In this document: in pieces, positions 39,758-62,378 of the stretch
Layout: each line of letters starts with the position of its first letter
Position numbering within the stretch: position 1 is the first letter of the stretch
Origin: an uncultured Gammaproteobacteria bacterium
Lineage (GTDB): Bacteria; Patescibacteriota; Patescibacteriia; UBA1558; GWA2-36-10
Reading direction: 5' to 3'
Assembly: GCA_964638415.1 (NCBI GenBank)
Contig: CAZWYP010000002.1
Coordinates: 97,997-161,996 of the forward strand
Length of the DNA: 64,000 nt
The notes under the pieces: model-generated
What the model was told of the DNA's origin: nothing
Seen by the model: the letters and a program-made list of their open reading frames with translations, nothing else
Database searches by the model: none
Program-made: the position numbers and the translations under genes

Positions 39758-40312
39758 ATGCAAAGCATTAAAAGCAATTTGAAAGAAAAAATCTCATTTT
39801 TACGCTTGAAATCAGGAGATGTGGAGGCTTTTGGCTTTTTTTATGACAAATACGTTAAGCAGATTTATCGGTTTATACTGATTAAAGTATCCAATAAAGA
39901 AGTAGCCGAAGACTTAACGCAAGAAGTTTTTTTAAAAACTTGGCAGCATTTAGTGGATCAGAAATCCCTAAGCAATTTCCGCGCTTTCATTTTCCGCATT
40001 GCTCATAATATCGTAGTGGACCATTACCGGAAATTGAACATCCAGTCTTTGCCGCTTGATTCCGCTGATGAAGTGGAAGAAGAAGTGGTCTTTGTCGACA
40101 AGATAGAATTAGCGCTGGATACCGAAGGATTAATTAAGTATCTGCGCCAGCTTAAGCCGGAATACCAGGAAGCCTTAGTCTTGCGTTATGTAGAAGAGCT
40201 CAGTTTGGATGAAATTGCCGAAGTGCTGCAGAAGGATAAGAATAATGTTCGGGTAATTCTGCACCGGGCCATCAATAAATTAAAAACGATTATCAATAAT
40301 AAAGTTAAATAA
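39758..40312 (+). CDS. ECF-type RNA polymerase sigma-70 family factor.
   Basis: Region 2 (FYDKYVKQIYRFILIKV...DLTQEVFLKTW) and region 4 (ALVLRYVEELSLDEIAEVL...VRVILHRAINKLK). Confidence 0.85.
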   Translation: MQSIKSNLKEKISFLRLKSGDVEAFGFFYDKYVKQIYRFILIKVSNKEVAEDLTQEVFLKTWQHLVDQKSLSNFRAFIFRIAHNIVVDHYRKLNIQSLPLDSADEVEEEVVFVDKIELALDTEGLIKYLRQLKPEYQEALVLRYVEELSLDEIAEVLQKDKNNVRVILHRAINKLKTIINNKVK

Positions 40313-40316: not shown

Positions 40317-41576
40317 ATGAGTTTAGAAAGAAAATTTTCCCAACTGAAGAATGCTCCCGAGTTTTCTTTGGATAATAATTGGGAAAAGACTACTAAACAC
40401 AACTTGCTTTCAGAGCTCCATGCGCAAAATCGTCTGATGAAGATCCAGAAATTAACTACTGGTGAGAAAATGGATTTGCTGGTGATGAGTTTTATGCGTC
40501 GGCTGGTGCCCTCAACCGCTAAGATAGTGGCGGCTTTTTTGATCGTTATGATGGGAGCTGGTACTAGTTTGGCGGCGCAAGCGGCTGTGCCTGGTGAACC
40601 GCTTTGGCCGGTAAAGCGGTCTATTGAAAAAGCGGAAATCACCCTGGCTATGAATCCGGTCAAGGAAGCGGAGATCCACATCAAGCATATTAATAATAGA
40701 TTGAGCGAGATAGATAAAATTGTCGGCAGTGCTAAAAATGAAGTTTCACCGGATAAAGTTGCTAAAAAAGAAAAGGCCATTAAGCAGGTAGTCAGGCATT
40801 TGGAAAAAGATGTGGCAGCCGTTGACAGCACTTTAAAGATTGTTAAAGAAGAAAAAAAGCCAATGGAGACTGTGAATCTGGTAAAGAAAGTGAAAGATGT
40901 GGCCAAAGAAACTAAGCAGAAAGCTAATTCTTTAGCTAATGAAGTACCGAAAGAAAAGAGCGAAGTGATTGGCGAAGCATTGACTAGCGTAGCGGCGATA
41001 AACAATGCGGTGACGGAAACAGTGGTAAATATCGCTGTAGAGCTTCATCAGGAAGCAGTAGCACAAGAAGCGCAGGCTGAGACTACCGCAGAAAATTCGC
41101 CAGCACCAGTTGATGAAGCAACTAAGACAGAATTAGAAGCAGTTAAAACTGCCGCGGTAGAAATTCTAAATGATGAAATTAACCAAATTTCCTCGGAAAT
41201 CCAGGAATCCAAAGATAAAGTAGTGACTAGTGAGACTGTTGATGCAGCGCCTAGCGAGCAGACTAAGCAGGAAATTTCTGAAGTAAAAGGAAAGACTGAA
41301 CAGGCGGAAAGCGTTTTAGGCGAAGCCAAAGCCTTATTGGATGGCGGATCAATCAAAGACGCGGCCGATAAAGTCTTGGTCAGCAAAGAAATCAACAAAC
41401 AAGCGGAAGCCGGCTTGCAGCAGTTAACCAAGCCTATTAACACCATTCCAGTCAATAATACTTCTACAGATCCGGTTATTCCTACTGAAAACAACACCAC
41501 CACGATTGAATCAGCCGCCTTACCGAATACGGAAATTGATTTAATTGAAGGCAAGGAAGTAGAAGAGGTTAAATAA
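40317..41576 (+). CDS. Membrane-anchored DUF5667-type protein, a probable anti-sigma factor partner of the upstream ECF sigma. Long helical/coiled extracytoplasmic region.
   Basis: TM helix (VAAFLIVMMGAGTSLAAQAAV) followed by PGEPLWPVKRSIEKAEI, the hallmark PGxPLYxVKR motif of DUF5667. Confidence 0.6.
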   Translation: MSLERKFSQLKNAPEFSLDNNWEKTTKHNLLSELHAQNRLMKIQKLTTGEKMDLLVMSFMRRLVPSTAKIVAAFLIVMMGAGTSLAAQAAVPGEPLWPVKRSIEKAEITLAMNPVKEAEIHIKHINNRLSEIDKIVGSAKNEVSPDKVAKKEKAIKQVVRHLEKDVAAVDSTLKIVKEEKKPMETVNLVKKVKDVAKETKQKANSLANEVPKEKSEVIGEALTSVAAINNAVTETVVNIAVELHQEAVAQEAQAETTAENSPAPVDEATKTELEAVKTAAVEILNDEINQISSEIQESKDKVVTSETVDAAPSEQTKQEISEVKGKTEQAESVLGEAKALLDGGSIKDAADKVLVSKEINKQAEAGLQQLTKPINTIPVNNTSTDPVIPTENNTTTIESAALPNTEIDLIEGKEVEEVK

Positions 41577-41666
41577 TTTTAAATATAAGTTTTGAAAATT
41601 TATATTACCATCCTAATTTAGCGCGAAAGATAGGTTGTGGGTACATAGCTTTTCTCCTTGAGGAAA

Positions 41667-41711
41667 GCTATAATCCCTAACTTATCGCTATAATCGCGCG
41701 CGATTAGGGAT
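41667..41711. promoter_or_regulatory. Composite operator-like element upstream of the giant surface-protein gene. A perfect 16-bp palindrome TAATCGCGCGCGATTA (41691-41706) is flanked by ATCCCTAA/TTAGGGAT arms and a duplicated GCTATAATC (-10-like) box.
   Basis: Read directly. The palindrome overlaps a TATAAT. Confidence 0.5.
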
Positions 41712-41934
41712 GGTATGTTCCTAGAAAATTAAATTGTGTTTTTTGAGCCTAAAGAACTCAAAACTTATTTGTGGCCTATAAGTCCAATGTCCAGAAAGGT
41801 CGACGCCGTTAAGGGGTTGGGAATTGGAGATTATAGTTTAGTCCGTTATTCTTGCAAAAGAATAAGGATGCTCGCAGATAGGACCGCACATTTATGTTCT
41901 AGCGTAACATCTTATAATTAATAAAAACGAATAC

Positions 41935-44900
41935 ATGAATTTAGTAAAGAAGTTTTTTGTCTTTGCTTTAATGCTGACCACTGTAACCACATTGTCAGTT
42001 ACCCCAGCTTTTAAGGTAGAAGCTGCTGGTAGCTATGGCACTGGCTCACTCTTGGCCTTACAAGGTGCGTCCGATGCCGCAGTGTACTACATTGGTTCAG
42101 ATGGAAAGAAATATGTCTTTCCAGATGCGAAAACATATTTCACCTGGTACGAAAACTTTGACAATGTTGTCCGAGTCCCAGTATCAGAATTAGATATGTA
42201 CCCAGATGGCGGAGCGGTTACCTACCGTGCCGGTACCAAATTGGTAAAGCATATCAATACTGCTAAAGTGTATGCCGTTGAACCAGGCGGAGTCGTCCGC
42301 TGGATCACCGACGAAGCTACTGCTATCTCCTTGTTTGGAGCTAACTGGGCTTCTCGCGTCCAGGACGTTATCCCAGGTTACTTCTCATCCAGCTATACAG
42401 TTGGTGATGATATGGGCAACACTTTACCAACCGGTTCTTTAGTCATGGAACCAGGTGGCAGCACTTACTACTACATTGAAAATGGCACCAAGAGACCATT
42501 TGCTTCCGCTGATGCGTTTGAAGCTAACGGTTTTGACTATGACAATGTATTGACTATGAGTTTATCAGGTTACACCGAAGGTGATTCTATCACCGGTGAG
42601 GAAGCTGAATTGTCAGGCTTTATGCCAGGCGAAGGCGGCCAGACTCCAGTCGGTGGTGACTTGAATGTTTCTTTGGCCTCAGACACTCCAGCTGTTGGTG
42701 TAGCTGTTACTGGAGCCGCTCGCTTACCTTTTACCAAGGTTAGATTGCAGACTGGTGCTTTGGGTGTGACCATTGATTCTATTGTTGTTGAGCGTGGCGG
42801 ATTAGGTCAGGATGGCGCTTTTACTAGCGTTGATATCTTAGATTCTAATATGTTGCCTTTTGACAACAACTCTAAGAGTTTTAATTCTACTCATCAGGCT
42901 ACCTTCACCAAGGATATTACTATCCCTGCTAACACCACTATGTATATTTACTTAGCTGGTAATATGGGAACTATTGGTAACACCTATGCCGGTGAATATC
43001 CAACTTTGGGTATTTCCAGCATTACTTTAGCTGGCGGTGGTTCAGTGATTGGTTCTTTGCCAATTTTCGGTAACTACATGACTACCAATGGCACTTTAGC
43101 TATTGGTTCAGCAACAGTTTCCCGTGGTTCTTACACCAACTCTACTTCTTCAACTTTGGAAGTCGGTCGCACTGATTACAGCTTCTTCTCCTTCCAGGTA
43201 GAAAATACCGGAAATGAAGACTTATCTTTGCGCCAACTGAGCGTGTACCAACAAGGTACCGCTGATCCAGACACTGATTTATCTGATTTTGAGTTGTTTA
43301 GAGACGGTACTAAGTTAGCTGATGGTATGGTTAATGGTGATTACATTAATTTTGTATTAACTTCACCATTGCTTATTCCTGAAGATCAGATTTACCAATT
43401 CCAGGTAAAAGCTGATATTGTTGACGGTTCTGCTAGAACAATAGATTTAGGTGTTTACCGTGCCACTGACCTATTATTTATGGGTCAGACCTATGGTTAC
43501 AATGTAACTCCTACCTATTCTGGAACTGGTTATTCAACAAACTCACCAGTTTTAAGTGATAATGAATTCACTATTTCTACTGGTACTTTGACTGTTGAAC
43601 GGAGCACCACTGTTGGTTCTGAAAATATTTCCATTGGAAATAATCAGGTCTTAGGTGCTTTCAAATTCACTGTTAAAGGTGAGCCAATTAGTATTACCGA
43701 TTTAACTTTGGCCATTGCGTCTACTACAGGTGCAACCACACAGAAGGTGGGCGCTTTGGAGGCAGTAAAATTAGTAAATGCTACTTCAAATACAACCTTG
43801 GCTGGCCCAACAGATCATCTTGATGGTTCTACTAACATTGTCTTCTCTGACACCTTTACTTTGCCAGTAGGAGATACAGTAGTGAAAGTGGTTGGTAATT
43901 TACGTGTCAACAAGGGTTGGGATACTGATGATACAATTTATGCCAGTATTGCTGCTCCAGAAACAGATATTACTGCCGAAGGAGAAGTTACTGGTAATAA
44001 TTTAACTGCGGCTGAAATTACTCCAACCGCAGCTGTTTCTACCAATACCCAAACTGTTAAAGGAGCTTACTTAGCTGTTACCCGCAACACTTTACCAGCT
44101 TCTGGTACAGTAATTGCCGGTCAGCAGGATGTAGAATTAGGTTCTTGGACCTTTAACGCCACTAACTCTGGTGAAGATGTTCGCGTAACCACTATTGCTT
44201 TTGCAGCCTCTTCCTCAGCAGCTACCAATTTAACTGTGTTTGACGGTACTACCGCCTTAACGCCAGTTAATGATGCTCCAGATTCAACAGTTGACGGTGC
44301 AACCACTACATTTAATTTTGATTCACCAATCATTATTACCAAGGGTACTTCCAAGACTATTAAATTAGTTGGTGACATTAACACTAATGCCACCGCTGAT
44401 CAGTCCTCACAGTTTGGTATTACTGATGCTTCTACTTACGACAATCCATCGGTACAGGCTTATGGTGTTTCCACCAATGCCCGCGCCTACACAGCAATTA
44501 CTGCTGATAACGGCGCTATCTTTACCTACTCTGGTACTGGTACTGTAACTGTCAGCAACAACAATAATCCAAACAATGGATTTGTTCGCGCTGGTTCAAC
44601 CGGTAATATCTTCGGTTATATCAAGATTGATGCTTTGAATGAAGATTTAGATCTTGATGAATTACATGTCTTTGTAGCGGATGGCGGTGTTACTGGTACT
44701 GCTACTGGTAACTATCAAGATGTTGCTATGTTATACATCTACGATGGTTCAACCTTATTAGGCAGCGCTTCCAGTCCAACTGACCAATCTACTGGTATGT
44801 ATGATTTCGACTTCCCGAATGGTACTTTGACTGTCGCCAAAGATAGTTACAAGACTTTGACTGTCAAGGCTGACATGGCTACTATCAGCCAAACTGTTGA

Positions 44901-45708
44901 TAATGCCCCTGGTACTCCGGGAGTTGACATCAAGTTCGGCTTAGGCGGAACTGATGGCTTCAAGTTCACTGGTAACGCTTCTAACAGCACTATTACCTCT
45001 GAAACTTACAATGGTTCTACCACTTCTGCTATGGTCTTGCACAAAGCTATCCCAACCGTAACCTTCTCAACTACTTCTAATCGTTTGGGTGCCGCTTCTG
45101 CTTTGACTAACGGCGCGGTGGATCTGTATGCCTTCAATGTTGCTGCCGACAATGGTGGTAACGAAGTGTTGCTCTATCGAGCCACCTTTGAAGTTGCTAC
45201 TTCTGGTGCCGGTGCTTGGGGTCTAACTAACTGTATTTTGAAAGACGGTTCTGGCAACACTGTTGGTGCTGCCACTACCCCAACTGGCGCGGATGCAACT
45301 GCTATGAACTTGTTGACTTATACTTTCAATAATCCAAATATTTCTGCCGGTGATGCACAAGAAGCCTTGACTATTGCTACTGGAAGTTCAGCTACTTATA
45401 CCTTGAATTGTCAGGTATCTGGCGCTGATTCTGGAGACGTTGTCAGTGTTGCCTTAGTTGGTGATGCTGCTTCATCCACCCCAGCTGCCAGTCATGGTAC
45501 TCCAGCTGCCGCTGGTCAGAATACCGCCGCTGCTTGGTCTGCTTATGACAAGGGTAACTTTGTCTGGTCAGACAACTTCAAGAATCGTGGTTTAGCTACC
45601 GACGGTGCTAATGCTACCGCTTACGGTCAATGGTATAATGGTTACTTAGTGCCAGGTATTGGTACTGTAGGAACCACTTCTGCCTACACTGTTGGTTGGT
45701 CAAGCTAA
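41935..45708 (+). CDS. Giant (1257 aa) secreted cell-surface protein, S-layer or adhesin-like. Signal peptide, then three tandem aromatic-rich repeats of about 55 aa, then a long Thr/Ser/Gly/Asn-rich beta-rich region.
   Basis: MNLVKKFFVFALMLTTVTTLSVTPAFKVEAAG signal. Repeats VYYIGSDGKKYVFPDAKTYFTW, KVYAVEPGGVVRWITDEATAISLFG and TYYYIENGTKRPFASADAFEANGF. The remainder is more than 30% T+S+G+N. Confidence 0.7.
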   Translation: MNLVKKFFVFALMLTTVTTLSVTPAFKVEAAGSYGTGSLLALQGASDAAVYYIGSDGKKYVFPDAKTYFTWYENFDNVVRVPVSELDMYPDGGAVTYRAGTKLVKHINTAKVYAVEPGGVVRWITDEATAISLFGANWASRVQDVIPGYFSSSYTVGDDMGNTLPTGSLVMEPGGSTYYYIENGTKRPFASADAFEANGFDYDNVLTMSLSGYTEGDSITGEEAELSGFMPGEGGQTPVGGDLNVSLASDTPAVGVAVTGAARLPFTKVRLQTGALGVTIDSIVVERGGLGQDGAFTSVDILDSNMLPFDNNSKSFNSTHQATFTKDITIPANTTMYIYLAGNMGTIGNTYAGEYPTLGISSITLAGGGSVIGSLPIFGNYMTTNGTLAIGSATVSRGSYTNSTSSTLEVGRTDYSFFSFQVENTGNEDLSLRQLSVYQQGTADPDTDLSDFELFRDGTKLADGMVNGDYINFVLTSPLLIPEDQIYQFQVKADIVDGSARTIDLGVYRATDLLFMGQTYGYNVTPTYSGTGYSTNSPVLSDNEFTISTGTLTVERSTTVGSENISIGNNQVLGAFKFTVKGEPISITDLTLAIASTTGATTQKVGALEAVKLVNATSNTTLAGPTDHLDGSTNIVFSDTFTLPVGDTVVKVVGNLRVNKGWDTDDTIYASIAAPETDITAEGEVTGNNLTAAEITPTAAVSTNTQTVKGAYLAVTRNTLPASGTVIAGQQDVELGSWTFNATNSGEDVRVTTIAFAASSSAATNLTVFDGTTALTPVNDAPDSTVDGATTTFNFDSPIIITKGTSKTIKLVGDINTNATADQSSQFGITDASTYDNPSVQAYGVSTNARAYTAITADNGAIFTYSGTGTVTVSNNNNPNNGFVRAGSTGNIFGYIKIDALNEDLDLDELHVFVADGGVTGTATGNYQDVAMLYIYDGSTLLGSASSPTDQSTGMYDFDFPNGTLTVAKDSYKTLTVKADMATISQTVDNAPGTPGVDIKFGLGGTDGFKFTGNASNSTITSETYNGSTTSAMVLHKAIPTVTFSTTSNRLGAASALTNGAVDLYAFNVAADNGGNEVLLYRATFEVATSGAGAWGLTNCILKDGSGNTVGAATTPTGADATAMNLLTYTFNNPNISAGDAQEALTIATGSSATYTLNCQVSGADSGDVVSVALVGDAASSTPAASHGTPAAAGQNTAAAWSAYDKGNFVWSDNFKNRGLATDGANATAYGQWYNGYLVPGIGTVGTTSAYTVGWSS

Positions 45709-45747: not shown

Positions 45748-45780
45748 CAGCCCCCGCAATAATTTTGCGGGGGCTGCTTG
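45748..45780 (+). terminator. Strong GC hairpin after the giant gene (weak T-run).
   Basis: CAGCCCCCGC-aataatttt-GCGGGGGCTG. Confidence 0.45.
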
Positions 45781-45831
45781 TCAAAAGGGGATAAATATAA
45801 TAGAATTAGCAGGTATTTATTATTTTAAATT

Positions 45832-46521
45832 ATGAAAAAAGAAGGCAAAAAATATACAATTATTATCCTTATTGTGGTGGTTATTGGCATAGTGGCTATT
45901 GTTATTTTTAATAGTCTTGACAATAAAGATAATAAGCCAAAGGTAGTTGATATCAGCCATGTTTATGTGGCCGCGGATTTTCCCAACAGTACTTTGGATG
46001 AGAAGAATTTAAATGTTTTTTTAGAAAAATTGAACCGCAATTATGATTTTCTGCGCCAGGACTCCGGCTTTGATCCTTATGACCTGTGGGTAGATATTGG
46101 CAATACCAAGTTAGGACTTAATGATTATAATGGAGCTATTGAAGCCTGGGAGCAGGCGATTAGCTTAAACGAGCTTAATCCCTTGGCTTATGCTAATTTA
46201 GCCAATCTCTACAAGGATTTTGTTAAGGATTACGCTCAGGCGGAAAAATATTATGATTTGGCGATTAGCAAGGATAATATTGGTTATTTTCCGGACTACC
46301 AGTCTTTTGCTGAATTGCACATTCATTATTTGCCGGAAAACAGCGGTAAGGTAGAAGCGATTATGCTTTCCGGCGCGGAAGTGGCCCAAGGTAATAATAA
46401 AATTCCTTTTTATTACTACCTTTATGATTATTTTAAAGAAAAAGACAAGTCTAAAGTGGACTACTACCGTCAGCAGATATTAACGGTTGACCCCAATTTT
46501 GACTGGTCTCAATATGAATAG
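45832..46521 (+). CDS. N-terminally anchored TPR-repeat protein.
   Basis: TM helix then TPR-like AWEQAISLNELNPLAYANLANLY. Confidence 0.5.
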   Translation: MKKEGKKYTIIILIVVVIGIVAIVIFNSLDNKDNKPKVVDISHVYVAADFPNSTLDEKNLNVFLEKLNRNYDFLRQDSGFDPYDLWVDIGNTKLGLNDYNGAIEAWEQAISLNELNPLAYANLANLYKDFVKDYAQAEKYYDLAISKDNIGYFPDYQSFAELHIHYLPENSGKVEAIMLSGAEVAQGNNKIPFYYYLYDYFKEKDKSKVDYYRQQILTVDPNFDWSQYE

Positions 46522-46529: not shown

Positions 46530-48872
46530 ATGCTAGTGAATAAAAAAATATTAAGTCGTTTTATTTGGGTATTGTTGGGGTTAATAATGTTAACTCCACT
46601 GTATGTTAATAGCGACTGGTTTTTCCCTTATATTTTTTCTAAGACTTTAGCCTTTAGAATTCTGGTTGAAGTCTTATTTTTAGTCTGGCTAGCCTGGCTT
46701 TATACTGCTAGAGAAAAAATAAAAATAGACTGGTTGACTATTATCTTTACTGTCTTCATGTTAACCATGTTTATTTCTTCGCTATTCGGCCCTTATTTTT
46801 ATTTCAGTTTTTGGAGCAATATTGAGCGCAGCGAAGGTTTGTTACTCTGGTTGCACTTATTTGCTTTATTCTTAGTCCTGCGCAATTTTATTGTCGGCCG
46901 TAATCAGTGGAAAATTTTGATAAACATATTCTTTGCTTCCGCCCAGATTGTCGCCTTAATCGGATTATTGCAGTATTTTAACGTGGATTTTATTAATCAT
47001 GGAGCTGCTAGTGATGAACGAGTTTCTTCCACTATTGGTAATGCCGCTTATTTAGCTGGATATTTATTATTTGCCGCTTACTTTGGCTTGTATTTATTAT
47101 TTAAGCACCGCCAGAACATTTATCTGAAGGCTTATTATCTTGCTTTTGTCTTGATGGATCTTTTTGTAATGGCGCAGACCGGTACTAGAGGAGCTTTTTT
47201 GGCCTTAATTATTACCGCTTTTTTATTCTTAGTTTACAATGTTATCCAGTTAAAAAATAGAAAGTTTAAATACTCCTTACTATTAGTCGGAGTTTTAATT
47301 GCTTTAAGTATTGTTTTAGTTTATTTAAATAAAGATAGTAATTTTGTAAAAAACAGTCTGCCTCTGCAGCGCTTAGCTAACATTTCTTTTAGTGAGAGGA
47401 CCGCTCAAACTCGCTTAATGGCCTGGAATGCGGCCTGGCAGGGCTTTTTAGATAGGCCACTGTTAGGCTGGGGCAATGAGAATTATTATATTGTATTCAA
47501 TAGGTATTTTGATCCGGAGATTTATTCCCATGCTGGGTCTCGCGTTTGGTTTGATCGGGCGCATAATATTTTCTTGGATCATTTGGTGAACGGAGGAATA
47601 ATTGGTTTTATTGCTTATTTATTTTTCCTTTTCGGTCCGATCTGGATTTTATTTAAAAGGGGAGTCTGGTCTAATTCTTTATGGTCTAAATTTAGGAAAA
47701 AATTGCCAATAGGAGCTCCGGTTAAAATGAATTTTGGTAATCAGATGCTGTTGTTGTCTACGCTTGCTTTCGTGATTCAAGGATTATTAGTATTTGAAGC
47801 TCTGGTTACTTATCTTCCCTTACTGATAATCTGGGCTATGATTGGCGAGAAGTATTTTAAGACCAAGTGGGAAATAGGTAGTCGTAATATATTCTTATGG
47901 ACTACAGTTGTTTATTTACTGGCCCTTTTTCCTATTATGTATTATGTAAATTACCGCGAAGCCAAGGCTAGTGGTGCGGTCATTGAAGCTTTGCGTTTAG
48001 AAAACGCTGATTATGCCGCTTCCAAGGAAATTACCAGTAATAATTATATTAAAGCTATTGAGACCTACTACCAAGCTATTAATTACAACAGTTCAGGGAC
48101 CAATGAATATCGCCGTAGATTAGCAGAGTATGTTGATGGACTAGTGGTTGGCCGGAATATTACTCCTTATGAGGCTTTGAAATACGTAGAGGAATTAGAT
48201 AAGGAATTATATAAGCGTTTGGAGGAAAATCCTTATGATGCCGCTAATTTAATACTGCTAATGCGCCATTATAATTATACTTATATTTTAAATTATAACC
48301 GCTTGTATGAAGTCGCTAAAATTGGAGAATTATTAAAAGCCTTAAGTCCAACTAGACCCCAGCTTTATCATGAATTAGGCTATGCCGATCTTTATTTATA
48401 CCAGCATTTTAGGGACGCCGGCGATACAGTGCAAGCAGAAAAATACCAGAAATCATTGTTAGATAATTTCCAATACGCTATTGATTTGAACAATGACGTA
48501 GTGGAATCTTATGTTAATATGATTATGTCTTTAATTGCTTCTGATCAGCCGGATAAGGTACAAGGTTATTTAGATATTATGGATCAGATGCAGCTCAATT
48601 ATTACCGGGAAGATTATCTGAACCGTATGGTTAATTCCGCTATTAATGCCAAGGATTATTTTTGGATGGAGAAACTGTTGAATGTTCTTATTGAAAAATA
48701 CCCAGAGAACCCTAACTATTTAATCCGTTTAGCTGTTGCTTATGCTTCCCAGGATAAGGATGATTTAGCCATTTCCACAGCAGAGAGAGTAAAAAGTTTT
48801 GGCGCCCAGTATAATTCTCAAGTAGATGAATTTGTCAGGCAAGTTCGAGCAGGAACTTTCCAGATTGAATAA
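46530..48872 (+). CDS. O-antigen ligase/polymerase (Wzy_C) family polytopic membrane protein fused to a TPR-like C-terminal domain of about 350 aa. Candidate O-oligosaccharyltransferase.
   Basis: About 12 TM helices. Wzy_C-like region with GTRGAFLAL...AHNIFLDHLVNGGIIG. Long TPR-like tail. Confidence 0.65.
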   Translation: MLVNKKILSRFIWVLLGLIMLTPLYVNSDWFFPYIFSKTLAFRILVEVLFLVWLAWLYTAREKIKIDWLTIIFTVFMLTMFISSLFGPYFYFSFWSNIERSEGLLLWLHLFALFLVLRNFIVGRNQWKILINIFFASAQIVALIGLLQYFNVDFINHGAASDERVSSTIGNAAYLAGYLLFAAYFGLYLLFKHRQNIYLKAYYLAFVLMDLFVMAQTGTRGAFLALIITAFLFLVYNVIQLKNRKFKYSLLLVGVLIALSIVLVYLNKDSNFVKNSLPLQRLANISFSERTAQTRLMAWNAAWQGFLDRPLLGWGNENYYIVFNRYFDPEIYSHAGSRVWFDRAHNIFLDHLVNGGIIGFIAYLFFLFGPIWILFKRGVWSNSLWSKFRKKLPIGAPVKMNFGNQMLLLSTLAFVIQGLLVFEALVTYLPLLIIWAMIGEKYFKTKWEIGSRNIFLWTTVVYLLALFPIMYYVNYREAKASGAVIEALRLENADYAASKEITSNNYIKAIETYYQAINYNSSGTNEYRRRLAEYVDGLVVGRNITPYEALKYVEELDKELYKRLEENPYDAANLILLMRHYNYTYILNYNRLYEVAKIGELLKALSPTRPQLYHELGYADLYLYQHFRDAGDTVQAEKYQKSLLDNFQYAIDLNNDVVESYVNMIMSLIASDQPDKVQGYLDIMDQMQLNYYREDYLNRMVNSAINAKDYFWMEKLLNVLIEKYPENPNYLIRLAVAYASQDKDDLAISTAERVKSFGAQYNSQVDEFVRQVRAGTFQIE

Positions 48873-48885: not shown

Positions 48886-50586
48886 ATGAAATTAGCCATT
48901 GGTTTGTCAAAAATTAAGTGGCCGCAAATCGCTATAGTAGCTATATTATTATTAGCTACTATTTTGCGTTTTTACGCGCTGGATCGGGCTGATGTCTTGA
49001 CTGACGAAGCTTCAGTCAGCTTCCGCTCCATTGGCTATTTTGACTGGCTGGCTACTCCTTACCAAACTACGCCCTTAGAGTGGCTGTCTAGCCGTCCCAC
49101 TTGGACTTATTTATCTTTTCATGATCATCCTCCTTTCAGCTTTTTGCTGCAATTCTTGCAATTTAAAATTACTGGCGTTTCCATTTTAACTATGCGGTTC
49201 TGGCCGGCTCTCTATGGCGTATTAAGCGTTTGGCTGGTTTATTTAATTGGCCGCCGTTTATTCTCCAACAGCCTTGGTCTATTAGCAGCTGGGTTATTAG
49301 CTGTTAACAATCTGCATATCTGGATCTCTCGTTTAGCTTTGCAGGAGTCATTGGTTGTCTTATTGATTTTAACCAGCTTTTACTGGTGGCTGAAATTTTT
49401 GGAAAATAGGAAGTATTTTTATTGGTTGGGGTTATTCATAGGTTTAAGCTTATTGGCCAAATTAACAGCCATTATTTTACTGCCGATAATCTTTGGCTAT
49501 CTTATTTTCTGGCGGAAAGATATTCTACGCTGGCGGGAATTTTACTGGGCAGTAATTATTGCACTGGCCGTCTGGTCGCCTTATTGGGTTTATAATATTA
49601 TTTTGTATCAGAATTTCGGCCATTTTGATTTCCAATTATCCTGGCTTTTAGGACAGCCGGTAGAAGCTTGGCAACAGCGCCCCGGGCGTACGGAAGTGCC
49701 TAATAAGTCATCAGCTTTGTTTTTTATCTTTGGCGGCCTTAAGTATAGCTTGTCTCCAATATTCTTTTGGCTGGTTAATTTGAGCTTAGTGGCAGGGATA
49801 ATTAAGTTATTTAAGGATAAATTCAGCGATAAGAATTTTTCTTATTTACTATGGATAATTTTATCTCATCTTATCCTTTTGATTTTTATCGGCAGCAGCG
49901 CCAGATTTCTTGCTCTGCTCACCCCTTGGCTGTGCTTATTGTTAGCCTATGCTTTATTAATTTGGCATCGTTATTTTTCCCAGGTCTTCATGATTATTAT
50001 TTTATGCTTGATATTTGTGGTCGAAGTTTTTTATAGCTATAATACCAATATTAATTATGTTTTTTGGGGCAAGAAGAATATTACTTATTCGCCGTTGAAG
50101 AGCCAGGCTTATCCTTATGGCTATAACCAGCTAGAAAATTATTTTGATAATCTGTTATCCAACCAGAAACCAGCTGTGCTGTTATCTGTAGTGAATCCAA
50201 ACATTAATAATTTTATTAAAGAGCAAGTTGCTAAAAATACCGGACAGCCGCAAGCTAAGATGGTCATTTATGACCAGCGCTTGCAAGGGGAGAGCTTACT
50301 GTGGTTTTTTACCAGAAGATTTTTTTACCAAGGCTGGCCTATGCTGCCCTATGATACTTACCAGCAGGCCCTATCTTTGCAAGGCGAGGATTTATTTCGC
50401 CAGTTGGGAATCAAAGACTTTTACTATGTGATGCCCACTGATGTGCTGCCGCTGGATTTAACTAATGAGGCGGCTAATAATGAGCTTGTTAATTTTGTTT
50501 CTCGTTTACAAGAACAGGGGATACAGCCGCAAAAAATATTTAATCATCAGGGGAAATTAATATTTGAAGTTTACCATTTTAATTAA
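48886..50586 (+). CDS. GT-C fold glycosyltransferase of the PMT/ArnT (GT39/GT83-like) family.
   Basis: Polytopic N-terminus with a first-loop DE motif (LTDEASVSF). HDHPPFSFLL motif. Large C-terminal soluble domain. Confidence 0.7.
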   Translation: MKLAIGLSKIKWPQIAIVAILLLATILRFYALDRADVLTDEASVSFRSIGYFDWLATPYQTTPLEWLSSRPTWTYLSFHDHPPFSFLLQFLQFKITGVSILTMRFWPALYGVLSVWLVYLIGRRLFSNSLGLLAAGLLAVNNLHIWISRLALQESLVVLLILTSFYWWLKFLENRKYFYWLGLFIGLSLLAKLTAIILLPIIFGYLIFWRKDILRWREFYWAVIIALAVWSPYWVYNIILYQNFGHFDFQLSWLLGQPVEAWQQRPGRTEVPNKSSALFFIFGGLKYSLSPIFFWLVNLSLVAGIIKLFKDKFSDKNFSYLLWIILSHLILLIFIGSSARFLALLTPWLCLLLAYALLIWHRYFSQVFMIIILCLIFVVEVFYSYNTNINYVFWGKKNITYSPLKSQAYPYGYNQLENYFDNLLSNQKPAVLLSVVNPNINNFIKEQVAKNTGQPQAKMVIYDQRLQGESLLWFFTRRFFYQGWPMLPYDTYQQALSLQGEDLFRQLGIKDFYYVMPTDVLPLDLTNEAANNELVNFVSRLQEQGIQPQKIFNHQGKLIFEVYHFN

Positions 50587-50592
50587 AATCTT

Positions 50593-52344: not shown

Positions 52345-52380
52345 AAAAACGCCTGGACTATTATTCCAGGCGTTTTGTTT
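52345..52380. terminator. Bidirectional terminator between convergent genes.
   Basis: AAAACGCCTGGA-ctattat-TCCAGGCGTTTTGTTT. Confidence 0.75.
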
Positions 52381-52839: not shown

Positions 52840-54027
52840 TTAAAATAGTTTACAGTATAATTTTTCCGTTTCTGCTAGAGTTTTATTTAAAGAAAATCTG
52901 GTGCGGATATTGTGTTCGTTGTTTTCAATAAGTTTTTTACTTAAAATCTGGTTATTAGCAAGAGTTTCCATAGCCTTCAGCAAGGAAAGAGGATTAGCGG
53001 GAGTGGTTAATAATCCAGTTTCATTATCGGTTAAGATTTCCGGAATGCCGCCAACGCGGGAAGCAATGGTGGGAATTCCTGCTAGTCCTGCTTCCAGAAT
53101 AGTATAGGGCAACCCTTCTTTGACGGAGGGGAGGATAAAGTAGTCAAAAGCTTTTAAAAATTTCCAGTCATTATTTTTAGCTGGTACTATTTTAATATAC
53201 TCCTGCAGATTATTGCGTTCTATTTTCCCTTTAATATTATTTTCTTCCGGACCTTCGCCAATAAAAATCCAACGATGATTTTGTAATAATGGTGACTTTT
53301 GCTCAACTAAGCTTTTTATTGCTTCAATTAAATAGGGATAGCCTTTAGTCTCATAGAAACTGGCGATGGTGCCAAAGTATTTTTTATCTTCAGACAAGCC
53401 AAGCTCTTGTTTGGCTTCGGCTTTGGACAAGAAATCGTATTCAGAAAAATCCAGTCCATTATGAATAGTGATCATTTTCCTGGCTGGGCAGATCTTATTA
53501 TCTAAAGCGCTTTGCTTGTCAAAGTCAGAAACAGTAATAATAGCAGTCTGCAGCCCAGTAGAGAATTTCTCTGACATTTTATAGATCAACTTCTGCAGTT
53601 TATTTAGCGGCTCATTAAAGACAAAGCCGTGCGCAGTATAGACTATTCTGGTTCTGACATTGAGAGGATTCATATTGTATCCTTGGGCGGCTAAAGTGCC
53701 TAATAGGCCGACCTTAGAGCTGTTAAGATGAATTAAATTATATTGCCCTTGCTTAATAATCTTACTTAAGTCTCTAATAGCGGACAGCTCTTTGGCTGGT
53801 TCAATGTTGCGCATTAAGTTTTTAACAGGAATAGTTTTAATGCCTAATTTATCTGCTTGGTCAAGAAAAGTCTGATCAAGATTGGCAATTTCCCCATAAG
53901 CAATTTCTACTTGATTATCTTTGGCAAAATATTTAGCCAATTGCCAGACATACTTTTGCGCGCCACCCCATTTAGTTTGAGTGACTATGTAGAGAATTTT
54001 TTTACCTGATAGTTTATTTTCTGGCAT
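52840..54027 (-). CDS. Glycosyltransferase family 4 (GT-B, RfaB-like).
   Basis: C-terminal EGLPYTILEAGLAGIPTIASRVGGIPEI motif. Confidence 0.8.
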   Translation of the reverse strand: MPENKLSGKKILYIVTQTKWGGAQKYVWQLAKYFAKDNQVEIAYGEIANLDQTFLDQADKLGIKTIPVKNLMRNIEPAKELSAIRDLSKIIKQGQYNLIHLNSSKVGLLGTLAAQGYNMNPLNVRTRIVYTAHGFVFNEPLNKLQKLIYKMSEKFSTGLQTAIITVSDFDKQSALDNKICPARKMITIHNGLDFSEYDFLSKAEAKQELGLSEDKKYFGTIASFYETKGYPYLIEAIKSLVEQKSPLLQNHRWIFIGEGPEENNIKGKIERNNLQEYIKIVPAKNNDWKFLKAFDYFILPSVKEGLPYTILEAGLAGIPTIASRVGGIPEILTDNETGLLTTPANPLSLLKAMETLANNQILSKKLIENNEHNIRTRFSLNKTLAETEKLYCKLF

Positions 54028-54125: not shown

Positions 54126-55253
54126 ATGAAAATATTAATTGCTACAGGAATATTTAAACCGGAAATCGGCGGGCCGGCTACTTATGTGGATAAGATAGCT
54201 AAGGAATTTTTGCGCTTAGGACATCAAGTGTCGGTTTTAACCTACAGTGATCAATATTTTCCAGAATTAGATAAACAATTGGATTATCCTGTTAAAAGAG
54301 TGATTAGAACTAATAAGCTGCAGAATTATTGGCGGTATTACCAGGCAGTCAAAGAAATTAGCCAGCAGAACAATTTTGATTTGCTTTATTGTTTTGATCA
54401 TTTCAGCGCCGGTTTACCTGTTGCTATGGCTAATTTAAAATTACACCGGCCTTTATTTATCCGCGTCGGCGGAGATTTTATCTGGGAAAGATATTTAGAG
54501 CAGTCTGGAAATTTAGTCACTTTGCGTCAATTCTATTTGCAGAAACTCCATTTAAAAACAGAAGCTTGGCGCTTTAAAATTATTAAGTGGGTTTTTAGTA
54601 AGGCCACCAAAATAATTTTTACTACGGAATTTCAAGCCAATATCTTTATTAAGAATTATAAATTAAAGTCAGATAAGCTGGCAATAATTAAAAATCCAGT
54701 GGAGAATAATTTAGTAATTAATGAAGATCATCAAAGGAGTAAGGAAATAGTTTTTATTGGCAGGTTGATTAATAACAGTAATTTAAAAAATTTAATTACA
54801 GCTTTTGACAAGATTAAAGATAAAAGTTTTTCTTTACATATAATCGGTGAAGGTCCATTGTGGAATAAGCTGCAGAATTTGATATTAAAATATGAAAATG
54901 TTTATTTAGAGCATAAGGTATTAGATCAGGAATTATTAGAGAGATTGCAACGGGCTTACCTGGTTGTTTTTCCCCAATTGACGAATATTAGCCCTAACAC
55001 CATGCTAGAATGTTTAAAGTTACAGACCCCTTTTATTAGCACTCAGGAAATAGGCTTTAACTGGTTAAAAGATAGCATTATTACTTTTAATCCACTGGAT
55101 ATTGATGACATGTCAAATAAGATTAGTTATTTGACTGATACTAACCATTATACTGAATATTGTAAAAAATTGTCGCAAATTGAATATTCTTATGACTACC
55201 AGCAAGCAGCGGACGATACGCTGAAGTTATTTAAAGAGCGGTCACCAAAATAA
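54126..55253 (+). CDS. GT4-like glycosyltransferase.
   Basis: N-terminal KILIATGIFKPEIGGPATYV GT4 N-domain. GT-B C-terminal domain. Confidence 0.65.
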   Translation: MKILIATGIFKPEIGGPATYVDKIAKEFLRLGHQVSVLTYSDQYFPELDKQLDYPVKRVIRTNKLQNYWRYYQAVKEISQQNNFDLLYCFDHFSAGLPVAMANLKLHRPLFIRVGGDFIWERYLEQSGNLVTLRQFYLQKLHLKTEAWRFKIIKWVFSKATKIIFTTEFQANIFIKNYKLKSDKLAIIKNPVENNLVINEDHQRSKEIVFIGRLINNSNLKNLITAFDKIKDKSFSLHIIGEGPLWNKLQNLILKYENVYLEHKVLDQELLERLQRAYLVVFPQLTNISPNTMLECLKLQTPFISTQEIGFNWLKDSIITFNPLDIDDMSNKISYLTDTNHYTEYCKKLSQIEYSYDYQQAADDTLKLFKERSPK

Positions 55254-55258
55254 TCAAT

Positions 55259-56383
55259 ATGAATATAGTTAATATTGGCATAGATAAAAGTTTGGTCGGC
55301 GGCCGACAATTAGGTGATGCGGTGGCCAGGCATAAAAAGTATGGTGAATATACCGATCATCTGGATATTATCGTTTATACCGATCAGGAAGATAAGCTGG
55401 AAAAATATTATATTTCAGATAAGGTTTTAGGCCATCCTACCAATTCCCGGTCAAAATTGAATTTCTTTTTTGATACCCAAGAGATTTTTAAGAAGATAAA
55501 TGAACAGCATCCGGTAGATATTATTGTCTGCCAAGATCCATTTATTTGCGGTTTAATCGGCATTTGGCTGAAAAAGAAATTTCCCGTCAAAGTGCAAATA
55601 AATTTCCACGGCGATTTCTGGCAGAATACCAATTGGCTCAAAGAGCGCTGGTTAAATTTTATCTTTCTATTAGTTTCCAAATACACAGTATTTAAAGCTG
55701 ACGCCATTAGGGTGATGAGCGAAGGGCAGAAAGAAAAATTAATTAAAGCCGGCATTAAAGCCAATAAGATTAGAGTAATTTCTACGCCGGTTAATATCGA
55801 CAATTTCCTTGCTAAACAACCTTTACCAGCAGAATTAAAGACAGAAAAAAAGGTAATATTAATGGTAGGAAGAAAAGATAAGGTTAAAGATTTTTCAACC
55901 CTATTTAAAGCTATTTGTTTGGTCTATGAAAAGTTTGTTAATCTAGAATTTTGGTTAGTAGGCAATTACACAGAAGAGGAAAAATCAAAATTGCCACTCC
56001 CACCAAAATTAACTGTTAAGCTTTTTGGCAGAACAGATATTAATGACTTGCCAAAGTATTACCAAGCAGCTGATTTAACAGTCTTATCGTCCACTTCAGA
56101 AAGTTTCGGCAAAGTTTTGGTAGAAGCTAATGCTGCCGGGAAACCGGTTATTGCTACTACTACCACCGGCGCTAAAGAAATAATTCAGGATGGGCACAAT
56201 GGATACTTGGTGCCCATTAAGGATTACCAGGCTTTGGCAGATAAGGTTCTTTATTTATTAAACAATCCAGATCAGGCTAAAAAGATGGGCGAGAATGGCT
56301 TAACTTTAGTTAAGGAAAGGTTTTCGGATAATACGGATAAAATAATTAATTTCTGGCAGGATATTATTAATAATAAGTTGTGA
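55259..56383 (+). CDS. Glycosyltransferase family 4.
   Basis: ESFGKVLVEANAAGKPVIATTTTGAKEII motif. Confidence 0.8.
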   Translation: MNIVNIGIDKSLVGGRQLGDAVARHKKYGEYTDHLDIIVYTDQEDKLEKYYISDKVLGHPTNSRSKLNFFFDTQEIFKKINEQHPVDIIVCQDPFICGLIGIWLKKKFPVKVQINFHGDFWQNTNWLKERWLNFIFLLVSKYTVFKADAIRVMSEGQKEKLIKAGIKANKIRVISTPVNIDNFLAKQPLPAELKTEKKVILMVGRKDKVKDFSTLFKAICLVYEKFVNLEFWLVGNYTEEEKSKLPLPPKLTVKLFGRTDINDLPKYYQAADLTVLSSTSESFGKVLVEANAAGKPVIATTTTGAKEIIQDGHNGYLVPIKDYQALADKVLYLLNNPDQAKKMGENGLTLVKERFSDNTDKIINFWQDIINNKL

Positions 56384-57078: not shown

Positions 57079-57080
57079 GG

Positions 57081-58737: not shown

Positions 58738-58740
58738 GCT

Positions 58741-60588: not shown

Positions 60589-60592
60589 ATTC

Positions 60593-61279: not shown

Positions 61280-61282
61280 TGT

Positions 61283-62377: not shown

Positions 62378-62378
62378 T

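Follow-up and report, generated by a model that had tools for sequence, protein, structure and literature searches.

A Wzy_C-TPR fusion protein of Patescibacteria as a candidate protein O-oligosaccharyltransferase encoded near a giant secreted protein

To which acceptor does a membrane enzyme of the O-antigen ligase type transfer its glycan in a CPR/Patescibacteria cell? These ultra-small bacteria, which account for much of bacterial diversity, live in attachment to other cells, and to our knowledge there is almost no experimental knowledge of their envelope. The locus considered here lies in a 64-kb stretch of DNA, called the window below, and contains a gene that a first-pass annotation had read as a Wzy_C domain fused to a TPR tail, near the gene of a giant secreted protein, and had proposed to act in protein glycosylation. 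The features of the locus are collected in Table 1.

Table 1. Features of the Wzy_C-TPR locus, with positions in the window.
Feature	Position	Strand	Basis
WecA/TagO-like polyprenyl-phosphate GlcNAc-1-P transferase, candidate initiating enzyme	35712..36776	+	Pfam Glycos_transf_4; TIGR02380
ECF sigma factor, conserved first gene of the module	39758..40312	+	Pfam Sigma70_r2/r4, NCBIfam sigma70-ECF; synteny
DUF5667 protein, 419 aa, conserved partner of the ECF sigma factor	40317..41576	+	Pfam E 1.8e-10; synteny
Long structured leader / intergenic RNA 5' of the giant gene	41577..41934	+	MFE -116.6 kcal/mol, z -6.8
Giant secreted protein, 1,257 aa, proposed acceptor	41935..45708	+	Signal peptide; composition; model; Foldseek
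Small TPR protein, 229 aa, N-terminal membrane anchor	45832..46521	+	Pfam TPR_11 E 1.1e-7
Wzy_C-TPR gene, 780 aa	46530..48872	+	ORF with ATG start; Pfam Wzy_C; AlphaFold; Foldseek
Polytopic membrane domain, aa 1-473, 13 TM helices, N-terminus inside	46530..47948	+	Hydropathy, positive-inside rule, model helices, Foldseek
Pfam Wzy_C match, aa 206-364	47145..47621	+	Pfam; spans R220, R295, D342, H345
Large extracytoplasmic catalytic loop, aa 267-346, TM9-TM10	47328..47567	+	~90-aa loop with short helices; WaaL homology
TM13 and stalk helix, aa 452-492	47883..48005	+	Single 41-residue model helix taking the chain outside
TPR domain, aa 502-773, 14 helices (~7 repeats), predicted outside	48033..48848	+	Model helices; family profile; Pfam in relatives
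PMT_2 GT-C glycosyltransferase a, 566 aa, loop-1 DE motif	48886..50586	+	Pfam PMT_2 E 1.7e-22
PMT_2 GT-C glycosyltransferase b, 582 aa	50593..52341	+	Pfam PMT_2 E 3.3e-27
Palindromic terminator-like hairpin closing the smallTPR-Wzy_C-PMT_2-PMT_2 operon	52346..52376	.	12-bp stem, T run
Divergent GT4 glycosyltransferase	52840..54027	-	Pfam Glycos_transf_1 E 1.9e-32
Glycan-assembly genes	54126..63407	+	Pfam, NCBIfam

The reading frame is as the first-pass annotation had described it, and the HMM search that it had called for gives a clear answer: the protein matches Pfam Wzy_C (PF04932) with an E-value of 6.9e-20 and 71.8 bits, above the gathering score of 31.7, as do all 37 full-length relatives. 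Both of the signature motifs quoted earlier are present, TGTRGAFLAL at aa 217-226 and DRAHNIFLDHLVNGG at aa 342-356. Wzy_C and IPR007016 alone cannot tell O-oligosaccharyltransferases (O-OTases) from polysaccharide ligases, and in O-OTases of the PglL/PglS class the domains PglL_A and Wzy_C_2 co-occur with the ligase domain (PMC12645811). Neither domain is found in the window protein at E <= 0.1 in Pfam; Wzy_C_2 gives weak matches in 5 of the 37 relatives (best 7.3e-4), and PglL_A is absent among the 25 most-matched families listed for them.

Judged by source names, the family is confined to CPR bacteria, all named homologues coming from CPR/Patescibacteria MAGs. It comprises 5,479 clusters of 50% identity at E <= 1e-30 and is represented at 583 species loci or more. 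The cluster count was obtained with the full-length profile, and some of the proteins in it may have a TPR domain only. The names returned by cluster look-ups are either "O-antigen ligase family/related" or "hypothetical", none being more informative, and literature searches on CPR O-OTases, CPR S-layer glycoproteins and CPR "O-antigen ligase" turned up nothing relevant.

We now consider the fold and the catalytic residues. The AlphaFold model has a pLDDT of 94 and a pTM of 0.92, and its best fold match in the PDB is the ligase WaaL (7tpg_B, Foldseek E 3.7e-5, TM-score 0.65 on the target), followed in rank by TPR proteins. At the sequence level, a single-sequence phmmer search of the PDB with the membrane domain found nothing relevant; WaaL is reached by the family profile only, as the sole Wzy_C-type PDB sequence matched (E 1.7e-9). 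Residues R220 (47187-47189), R295 (47412-47414) and H345 (47562-47564) align with R191, R265 and H313 of WaaL 7tpg and are, together with D342, invariant across 74 relatives. The catalytic loop is homologous to the periplasmic loop of WaaL that bears the catalytic histidine, and the histidine equivalent to H345 is catalytic in PglS as well, where the H324A variant is inactive (PMC12800693). Further downstream, position 423 in the TM11-TM12 hairpin is acidic in 15 of 15 orthologues and paralogues checked, which makes E423, by its expected position rather than by alignment, a candidate equivalent of the acidic residues E404 of PglL and E379 of PglS.

These residues bear directly on the possibility that the protein is a Wzy-type polymerase of the repeat units of some capsule or exopolysaccharide that has no connection with the secreted protein nearby. 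Pfam Wzy_C does include polymerases, and the polymerase model TIGR04370 gives a weak match (E 2.7e-4), but its 20 bits lie below the cutoff of 40, and the invariance of the histidine and of the WaaL-like arginines speaks against this role. Furthermore, no flippase/Wzx, ABC exporter, Wzz or LCP gene was found among the Pfam-scanned window genes or within 10 kb on either side of 14 orthologous loci. In some genomes, Wzy_C-TPR paralogues stand in tandem beside the giant gene, two or three in number, and a division of labour between polymerase and ligase was considered for them. It was rejected, as all copies retain the ligase-type R/R/D/H/acidic residues; since the catalytic histidine and arginines are kept throughout, none of the copies resembles a separate polymerase. 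A polymerase of this unrelated kind is highly improbable.

Concerning the topology, the membrane domain extends to about aa 473 with 13 TM helices, somewhat further than the roughly 430 aa assumed earlier. Four TM helices, an even number, separate the catalytic loop from the TPR domain, the positive-inside rule is satisfied throughout, and the loop before TM13 is rich in Lys and Arg and therefore cytoplasmic. The TPR domain is accordingly predicted by the model and the charge distribution to be outside the membrane, on the same side as the catalytic loop, which agrees with the outward orientation proposed at the outset and answers the topology check suggested with it.

The TPR domain itself is real, on the indirect evidence of the relatives, the family profile and the model. 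Taken alone, the window protein gives only TPR_19 in Pfam (E 0.028), with 15.2 bits below the cutoff of 25. However, Pfam TPR models are matched by 33 of the 37 full-length relatives, the family profile matches TPR structures with E-values from 2e-68 (2.1e-68, consensus TPR) to 1e-29 (OGT), and the 14 paired helices of the model at aa 502-773 match TPR structures in Foldseek at E 1e-4. The tail proposed earlier is hence found, with a length of about 300 aa instead of 350 aa. Its polar residues E526, S606 and R609 are invariant in the 37 closer relatives, E526 even in all 74, and conservation reaches 90% or more at R579, N582, E615, Y618 and E659. The pTM of the model implies, as far as a predicted structure can, that the arrangement of the TPR domain is fixed relative to the membrane domain. 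It is important to mention that TPR domains occur in polysaccharide export scaffolds too, which counts against an O-OTase reading.

A second TPR protein is encoded directly upstream, its gene ending 8 bp before that of the enzyme. It matches TPR structures with an E-value of 2.7e-21. The idea that it is a detached copy of the TPR domain of the enzyme was considered and rejected, the best BLASTP E-value between the two being 0.09, which is not significant.

WaaL, to which the closest solved structure and the catalytic residues belong, is a ligase with a lipid acceptor, and one may therefore ask whether the enzyme could be a ligase onto a membrane glycolipid or lipoglycan anchor, that is, a monoderm analogue of LPS ligation producing a surface glycolipid layer. 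We consider this very unlikely. The rigid 300-aa TPR domain and the partner TPR protein are foreign to WaaL, and it would not account for the strict linkage to a secreted-protein gene (see below). The lipid A-core acceptor of WaaL itself would be unavailable, because CPR bacteria are regarded as monoderm and without LPS; the scanned genes of the window, which covers only 64 kb, include neither lpx nor waa genes.

Next, we consider the proposed acceptor. The first-pass annotation had pointed to a giant Ser/Thr-rich secreted neighbour, and this description holds: the protein has a signal peptide, Ser and Thr make up 21.9% of its residues compared to a background of 10.8%, and the Wzy_C-TPR gene is the second gene downstream. 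It has a pI of 4.2 and 0.2% Cys. The family is found only in CPR bacteria, with lengths of 1,170-1,300 aa and every member annotated as hypothetical. No domain was detected in Pfam, with the sequence whole or split and even at E 10, and no match was obtained against PDB sequences. The structural model (pLDDT 84) consists of three N-terminal alpha/beta repeats followed by tandem beta-sandwich domains, and Foldseek matches it to arrays of Ig domains, PrgB and the S-layer of N. maritimus among them. Some homologues contain a PG_binding_1 or dockerin domain, which is consistent with a wall-associated surface protein.

The leader 5' of the giant gene has no match in Rfam. A leader of considerable length and structure is present at all 15 related loci, but six leaders folded together with RNAalifold showed no convincing common structure. 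As a separate observation, the C-terminal NGYL motif of the giant protein recurs in another secreted protein of the window.

Turning to the other genes of the locus, the two PMT-like GT-C enzymes expected downstream are indeed the next two genes, both with clear PMT_2 matches. The glycan-assembly genes at the far end of the locus follow in the order GT4, GT4, GT2, GT4, methyltransferase, AsnB-type amidotransferase, methyltransferase, GT4 and methyltransferase, the GT2 resembling polyprenyl-P-sugar synthases. On the other side, the WecA/TagO-like transferase matches TIGR02380 (ECA_wecA) with an E-value of 3e-28, outscoring MraY, and a WecA-like gene occupies the same position at a second locus (L089).

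Comparison across CPR genomes links the enzyme to the giant protein. The orthologous loci counted were those with at least 33% identity and at least 6 kb of upstream sequence (n=18), and all 18 have the order ECF sigma, DUF5667, giant protein, small TPR, Wzy_C-TPR, GT4 on the opposite strand and GT cluster. A homologue of the giant protein is thus found upstream on the same strand in 18/18 orthologous loci, compared to 2/39 of the more distant family members, which makes the link much stronger than had been claimed. The small TPR gene directly upstream of the enzyme is conserved in these loci, the GT4 immediately follows the Wzy_C gene with 35-63% identity, and a search that starts from homologues of the giant protein, with identities as low as 29-39%, recovers the same module. 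The PMT_2 genes, in contrast, vary from 0 to 2 copies per orthologous locus. They were therefore rejected as a defining part of the system.

In the wider CPR family (up to ~32% identity), the majority of Wzy_C-TPR genes do not lie beside a giant-protein gene, and one giant-protein homologue retains the small TPR gene with no Wzy_C gene nearby. Because of these unpaired cases, the pairing is not obligatory. Another option is a general PglL-like O-OTase that serves many exported proteins, such as pilins and other surface proteins, and lies beside one abundant substrate by convenience. The size of the family, mostly not adjoining the giant gene, would fit this, as would the NGYL motif of the second secreted protein. 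However, the strict linkage in the orthologue group and the tandem paralogues beside the giant gene suggest dedicated enzymes, and we regard a general enzyme as quite unlikely.

The main rival predicts the conserved neighbourhood of surface-protein gene and GT cluster equally well. In this scenario, the enzyme would act on a secondary cell-wall polymer, either polymerising the lipid-linked glycopolymer or ligating it to a linkage unit, and the polymer would serve as a non-covalent wall ligand of the giant protein. The model for this is WpaA/WpaB of Bacillus anthracis, which belong to the same Pfam clan, are proposed to be wall-polysaccharide polymerases/ligases and disturb S-layer assembly when depleted (PMC6030368). 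The N-terminal triple repeat of the giant protein could bind such a polymer, and the loci of more distant family members are ordinary polysaccharide loci, in which Bac_transf, NeuB and epimerases occur. On the other hand, the WaaL/PglL-type His/Arg set and the 13 TM helices with an outer C-terminal domain fit ligases with a foreign acceptor rather than Wzy polymerases, the TIGR04370 score is only half of its cutoff, and Wzx, Wzz and LCP are missing among the Pfam-scanned window genes. In some giant-protein homologues, moreover, the N-terminal region is a PG_binding_1 domain, and no special polymer is therefore needed there. We judge the wall-polymer scenario to be unlikely; if it were true, the module would define how a surface protein of CPR bacteria is anchored through a wall polymer.

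The explanation that we put forward is that the Wzy_C-TPR enzyme is an extracytoplasmic O-OTase of the WaaL/PglL type that acts en bloc on the co-encoded giant protein, a proposal whose chances we see as evenly balanced. The choice of a protein instead of a polysaccharide as the acceptor is something that we infer. Points that count against the proposal are the missing PglL_A and Wzy_C_2 matches, the lack of a flippase or ABC exporter gene in the stretches scanned and the non-obligatory pairing with the giant gene. Of the earlier O-OTase interpretation, the Wzy_C domain, the TPR tail, its orientation and the link to the giant protein are retained, while the PMT_2 neighbours vary between loci and the generality of the TPR-tail architecture holds only in part.

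In the proposed mechanism, a glycan would be built on polyprenyl-pyrophosphate at the cytoplasmic face by the WecA-like initiator and the downstream GT4, GT2, methyltransferase and amidotransferase enzymes, and would then be flipped across the membrane by a transporter encoded elsewhere than nearby. The 13-TM Wzy_C domain would bind this lipid-linked glycan, with R220 and R295 contacting the pyrophosphate, while H345, with D342 and E423, could be the base that activates the hydroxyl of a Ser, Thr or Tyr. The glycan would thereby be moved en bloc onto the Sec-exported, acidic, Thr/Ser-rich Ig-array protein encoded two genes upstream. The outward TPR domain, positioned rigidly over the catalytic face, and the membrane-anchored small TPR protein may capture or present this acceptor. 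Finally, the PMT_2 GT-C enzymes might add further sugars, using polyprenyl-P-monosaccharides made by the small GT2.

A broader proposal can also be formulated, although only tentatively. The giant protein of ~1,250 aa would then possibly be the main S-layer-type glycoprotein of many Patescibacteria, the module of ECF sigma, DUF5667, leader, giant protein, small TPR, Wzy_C-TPR and GT cluster a dedicated system for the biogenesis and glycosylation of the surface layer, and the fused TPR domain the acceptor-binding arm of a new, CPR-wide O-OTase clade. Should the O-OTase reading be correct, the module would name candidates for a major surface glycoprotein, its glycosylating enzyme and an accessory TPR protein, which could be searched for in existing metaproteomic, metatranscriptomic and cryo-ET data. 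Protein O-glycosylation of the Wzy_C type would then reach beyond Proteobacteria and Firmicutes into an uncultivated radiation of very large size, and screens for enzymes useful in bioconjugate glyco-engineering could draw on thousands of additional, diverged O-OTase candidates.

It remains to compare the enzyme with known systems. Compared to WaaL of Cupriavidus metallidurans (PDB 7TPG/7TPJ), its best structural match with aligned R/R/H residues, the window enzyme has an extra C-terminal domain, the 413 aa of 7tpg being membrane domain only, and WaaL uses lipid A-core as its acceptor, a molecule not known to be produced by CPR bacteria. A TPR domain coupled to a glycosyltransferase is also seen in OGT, TMTC1-4 and TfpW, and for OGT and the TMTCs this domain is regarded as the binding site of the protein acceptor. 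The analogy is confined to function, as the catalytic folds and the donors differ; a TMTC-like PMT_2-TPR gene does occur in the same module at one further locus (L006). The putative enzymes WpaA/WpaB discussed above resemble the window enzyme in Pfam clan, monoderm host and connection to S-layer assembly (PMC6030368), but they belong to PF13425 rather than PF04932, with no TPR reported.

With PglL of Neisseria and PglS of Acinetobacter, the window enzyme has in common the 13-TM WaaL-like core, the outward C-terminal domain, which forms a cleft, and the histidine (PMC12800693). The substrate of PglS is encoded nearby, as the giant protein, the proposed acceptor, is here, and for TfpO, TfpM and PglS in general the substrate is typically encoded beside the OTase (PMC12645811). 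Unlike these enzymes, the one in the window has a C-terminal TPR domain of ~300 aa and seven repeats instead of a Wzy_C_2 domain of ~110 aa, lacks PglL_A and Wzy_C_2 matches and has a monoderm host.

The closest parallel is offered by the predicted S-layer protein O-OTases WsfB of Paenibacillus alvei and WsaA/WsaB of Geobacillus stearothermophilus (PMC2943079), where the comparison concerns architecture and locus, as described, and not sequence. A Wzy_C membrane enzyme and a monoderm host are common to all, and the glycan-assembly locus lies beside or near a surface-protein gene, provided that the giant protein is of S-layer nature. WsfB carries a TPR, fused C-terminally, whereas in the other system a small TPR gene, wsaA, lies directly upstream of wsaB; the window locus has both, and it also has an Asn-synthase homologue, as wsfA is (PMC2943079). 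These loci, which have been studied experimentally, thus support the parallel to S-layer glycosylation drawn earlier. The more general claim, that a Wzy_C domain with a TPR tail is the architecture of S-layer and pilin O-OTases, holds for WsfB but not for WsaB, which is without TPR, nor for PglL and PglS, which are defined by PglL_A and Wzy_C_2. The window system differs from the WsfB and WsaB ones in its CPR/Patescibacteria host, in its acceptor candidate, an unrelated CPR-specific Ig-array protein of 1,257 aa without SLH domains, in the ECF sigma/DUF5667 pair with which the module starts, and in that no Wzm/Wzt exporter was found near the gene. On the sequence data, the window enzyme is a plausible further representative of the enzymes that S-layer glycosylation systems have already brought to light.

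The open reading frame of the Wzy_C-TPR protein is genuine and codes for 780 aa, and both motifs cited for it in the first-pass annotation are found in its sequence. An HMM search places the Wzy_C family (Pfam PF04932) at aa 206-364, with an E-value of 6.9e-20 and 71.8 bits against a gathering score of 31.7, and this is the sole Pfam family at E ≤ 0.01. The C-terminal TPR tail that had been claimed is below Pfam significance in the protein itself (top match TPR_19, E 0.028), but it is recovered from the relatives, the family profile and the structural model. Of 37 full-length relatives, 33 have Pfam TPR matches; a profile built from 74 relatives finds consensus-TPR and OGT-TPR structures in the PDB (E 2e-68 to 1e-29); and in an AlphaFold model from the 74-relative alignment (mean pLDDT 94, pTM 0.92), aa 502-773 form 14 regularly paired helices, for which the Foldseek matches are TPR structures. 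These three independent lines, drawn from sequence comparison and structure prediction, establish the tail. The two-part layout also holds, with a membrane part of about 473 aa, longer than the 430 or so originally assigned, and a soluble part of about 300 aa, shorter than the 350 claimed.

Hydropathy and the model concur on 13 TM helices, and alternate loops of the membrane domain are short and K/R-rich, consistent with an N-in topology. This would put the 90-residue loop (aa 267-346), a homologue of the catalytic periplasmic loop in WaaL, on the outer side. After it come four TM helices (347-380, 402-417, 425-442 and 452-473), and since this number of crossings is even, topology prediction puts the TPR domain on the side of the catalytic loop, that is, outside the membrane as had been anticipated. 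The final TM helix runs on into the TPR domain as a single 41-residue helix, and the high pTM of the model indicates that the two domains would be fixed in position against each other.

Among PDB structures, Foldseek ranks WaaL, the O-antigen ligase of C. metallidurans, first (7tpg_B, E 3.7e-5, TM 0.65 on the target), and the same chain is the only one found when the membrane-domain profile is compared with the PDB (E 1.7e-9). The profile alignment pairs R220, R295 and H345 with R191, R265 and H313 of WaaL, and these three residues, together with D342, are invariant among the 74 relatives. In PglS, the equivalent histidine is the proposed catalytic base, the H324A variant being inactive, and a role in binding the pyrophosphate is proposed for arginines (PMC12800693). 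The TM11-TM12 hairpin has an acidic residue at position 423 in all 15 orthologues and paralogues checked; this residue may correspond to E404 of PglL and E379 of PglS. Another option considered was a Wzy polymerase. The oligosaccharide repeat-unit polymerase model TIGR04370 gives 20 bits with the target, under its 40-bit cutoff. Because of this score, the WaaL-like fold, the paired Arg/Arg/His residues and the acidic residue at 423, the protein resembles the ligases of the superfamily, and we consider a polymerase very improbable.

A word-indexed protein search returned 790 relatives, the best 120 of which are all about 680-810 aa long and, where the source is named, come from Patescibacteria/CPR only (Komeili-, Parcu-, Portnoy-, Buchanan- and Harrisonbacteria). 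Scanning species-representative genomes gave at least 583 loci; the best 80 lie on MAG contigs and are mostly labelled Patescibacteria/CPR, with a few unclassified and about ten under proteobacterial labels (one Lysobacteraceae, nine 'uncultured Gammaproteobacteria'). An exhaustive profile search reached 5,479 clusters at 50% identity (E ≤ 1e-30); TPR-only proteins may be among them, and almost all of the best 150 are full-length. Databases call the relatives 'O-antigen ligase family protein', 'O-antigen ligase/TPR repeat protein' or 'hypothetical', and the target itself has an entry, without a name, in the protein collection. We found no paper on Wzy_C-TPR proteins of CPR.

We now turn our attention to the surrounding genes.

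Features of the locus (window positions) and tandem Wzy_C-TPR paralogues in related loci of other genomes (positions in each locus)
Feature	Position	Strand	Remark
WecA-like initiating transferase	35712-36776		10 kb upstream
ECF sigma factor	39758-40312		top NCBIfam match BldN family, under cutoff
DUF5667 protein	40317-41576		
Leader/intergenic region before giant gene	41577-41934	+	358 nt
Giant secreted protein	41935-45708	+	1,257 aa
C-terminal motif region of giant protein	45559-45708	+	aa ~1209-1257
GC-rich hairpin CAGCCCCCGCAA-TAATT-TTGCGGGGGCTG	45748-45776	+	directly 3' of giant gene
N-terminally anchored TPR protein	45832-46521	+	229 aa
Wzy_C-TPR protein	46530-48872	+	780 aa
PMT_2 GT-C gene pair	48886-52341		
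Palindromic terminator	52346-52376		
Tandem paralogues, L003	7826-9988		
Tandem paralogues, L023	6669-9104		
Tandem paralogues, L027	6558-9098		
Tandem paralogues, L056	3777-5996		
Tandem paralogues, L090	14548-19071		
Tandem paralogues, L070	9821-14503		

The small TPR gene ends 8 bp before the Wzy_C-TPR gene, and two PMT_2 GT-C genes follow with gaps of 13 and 6 bp. A promoter-like TTGTCA-17-TAGAAT (45778-45806) lies just past the GC-rich hairpin, and the two elements suggest that the giant gene is transcriptionally separate from the downstream TPR/Wzy_C/PMT_2 operon. Past the palindromic terminator come a divergent GT4 gene and then nine glycan-assembly genes almost to the window end, including GT4s, a 232-aa GT2, three methyltransferases and an AsnB-type amidotransferase. 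The top matches of the GT2 (56380-57078), all sub-threshold, are the polyprenyl-phosphate sugar synthases PpgS, ArnC and PgfS, and loop 1 of the PMT_2 proteins has an Asp-Glu pair (LTDEAS) in the first paralogue and Asp-Pro (LSDPAI) in the second; these motifs and the GT2 suggest that the pathway has a branch of its own for polyprenyl-P-monosaccharides. No export component turned up in the surroundings of the locus.

The giant protein has a signal peptide and no other TM segment. It is rich in Ser+Thr (21.9%, background 10.8%) and Gly+Ala (21%), with 4.6% Lys+Arg, 0.2% Cys and a pI of 4.2. Named members of its family are all Patescibacteria; the family is strikingly constant in length (about 1,170-1,300 aa), and nearly all its members are annotated as hypothetical and lack a Pfam domain; some homologues carry PG_binding_1 or dockerin domains. 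The model (pLDDT 84) has three alpha/beta repeats at the N-terminus, after which beta-sandwich domains follow one another in a chain; its pTM of 0.46 is what a beads-on-a-string protein would be expected to give. Its Foldseek matches are generic Ig-domain arrays, including the adhesin PrgB and a Nitrosopumilus S-layer protein, which are compatible with a surface-layer or adhesin role without being diagnostic of it. At the C-terminus, 12 loci share a conserved F[IV]WSD ... W[YF]NG[YF]LV.G[LIM] and then a short Ser/Thr-rich tail, and a degenerate copy, LLWSIVDEQFNGYLLPN (10744-10801), ends a 487-aa protein at 9338-10801; the motif may be a sorting, anchoring or acceptor signal of CPR surface proteins. 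Two adjoining proteins at 721-2862 (271 and 437 aa) have TSP3_bac (bacterial thrombospondin type-3) calcium-binding repeats and are likely further secreted or surface proteins. Elsewhere in the window, ComEC is apparently split into two overlapping ORFs (DUF4131 and Competence, 10848-12305; metallo-beta-lactamase domain, 12250-13131); a frameshift, a misassembly or a gene that is truly split could account for this.

The leader of the giant gene folds with an MFE of −116.6 kcal/mol (z −6.8 against shuffled controls) and has no Rfam match. Such leaders are long (233-439 nt) and unusually stable (z −2.8 to −12.5) in all 15 loci, that is, the window and 14 related ones; sequence blocks are conserved among the window and the related loci L001 and L003, and no common structure was resolved. 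The leader could be a stabilising 5' UTR or an undescribed regulatory RNA.

The context was compared across 87 related loci. Among loci with a Wzy_C-TPR protein of 33% or more identity to the query and no less than 6 kb of sequence upstream, 18 of 18 have a giant-protein homologue upstream on the same strand, usually in the company of the small TPR gene and the sigma/DUF5667 pair; a divergent GT4 follows the Wzy_C-TPR gene. More distant family members have the homologue upstream in only 2 of 39, one of the two at 32.6% identity. The module is found again when the comparison sets out from giant-protein homologues (29-39% identity). One variant has PG_binding_1 at its N-terminus, and in that locus the small TPR gene is present but no Wzy_C gene is close by. 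The ECF sigma factor and DUF5667 protein are always ahead of the giant gene in orthologous loci, which points to a sigma/anti-sigma-type control devoted to the surface protein. The order SecY, Adk, Map, RuvX, WecA-like transferase, DUF192, 241-aa multi-TM protein and PDZ protease is common to the window (32569-39080) and the related locus L089 (569-7070), whose giant protein is only 39% identical; the surface-protein module therefore has a fixed place right after the ribosomal-protein operon.

Other parts of the module vary. PMT_2 genes number from 0 to 2, and in the related locus L006 a 594-aa PMT_2 GT-C protein with a C-terminal TPR fusion (6434-8218, loop-1 motif AYDDNDFF) is encoded between the small TPR and Wzy_C-TPR genes, an architecture as in the eukaryotic TMTC protein O-mannosyltransferases. 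Several CPR genomes have two tandem Wzy_C-TPR paralogues within the module, 23-30% identical to the query. The Arg/Arg/Asp/His set is retained in all but one (the L056 paralogue has Lys at 220) and the acidic residue at 423 in all, so that by their residues all look like ligases, possibly differing in glycan or acceptor specificity.

CPR bacteria are considered monoderms that lack LPS, and therefore offer no acceptor of the classical WaaL kind. A glycolipid ligase is in our view distinctly improbable. We favour, with moderate confidence, an en-bloc protein O-oligosaccharyltransferase (O-OTase) for the giant protein, because of the ligase-type chemistry, the PglS/PglL plan and the protein-interaction domain on the catalytic side, and because the orthologues stay linked to a gene for a secreted Thr/Ser-rich protein, one for a partner TPR protein and a glycan-assembly cluster. 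The layout is moreover that of Firmicute S-layer glycosylation loci, and it fits the rule that a dedicated O-OTase lies beside its substrate: the genes of TfpO, TfpM and PglS adjoin their substrate genes (PMC12645811). A general O-OTase with multiple substrates is less likely, and we regard it as improbable. It is important to note that these domains alone do not separate O-OTases from polysaccharide ligases (PMC12645811). The strongest rival, which we still judge unlikely, is a wall-polymer ligase or polymerase whose polymer would anchor the giant protein; for WpaA/WpaB of B. anthracis, a wall-polymer role has been proposed without biochemical proof (PMC6030368). The first-pass annotation had read the target as a candidate O-OTase acting on protein. 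Its Wzy_C-TPR architecture stands and this reading is partly supported; we infer the protein acceptor, as we do the donor and the role of the TPR domain; on present evidence the target is a candidate O-OTase.

The envelope of the CPR radiation is essentially uncharacterised, and the value of the result lies in the conserved module, which offers concrete candidates for a surface glycoprotein, for the enzyme that modifies it and for a TPR accessory protein. By Pfam match, fold and catalytic residues, the target belongs to the Wzy_C/O-antigen-ligase superfamily. It falls outside the domain definition of the PglL/PglS class, PglL_A and Wzy_C_2 having no match in it, but shares with those enzymes the plan of 13 TM helices and an outer C-terminal domain. 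It fits the architectural definition of the WsaB/WsfB type. In the Firmicute S-layer loci, the TPR protein WsaA precedes WsaB, WsfB ends in a TPR of its own, and WsfA is homologous to Asn synthase (PMC2943079). The target is thus a CPR-wide addition to a known kind of enzyme and not a new kind of system.
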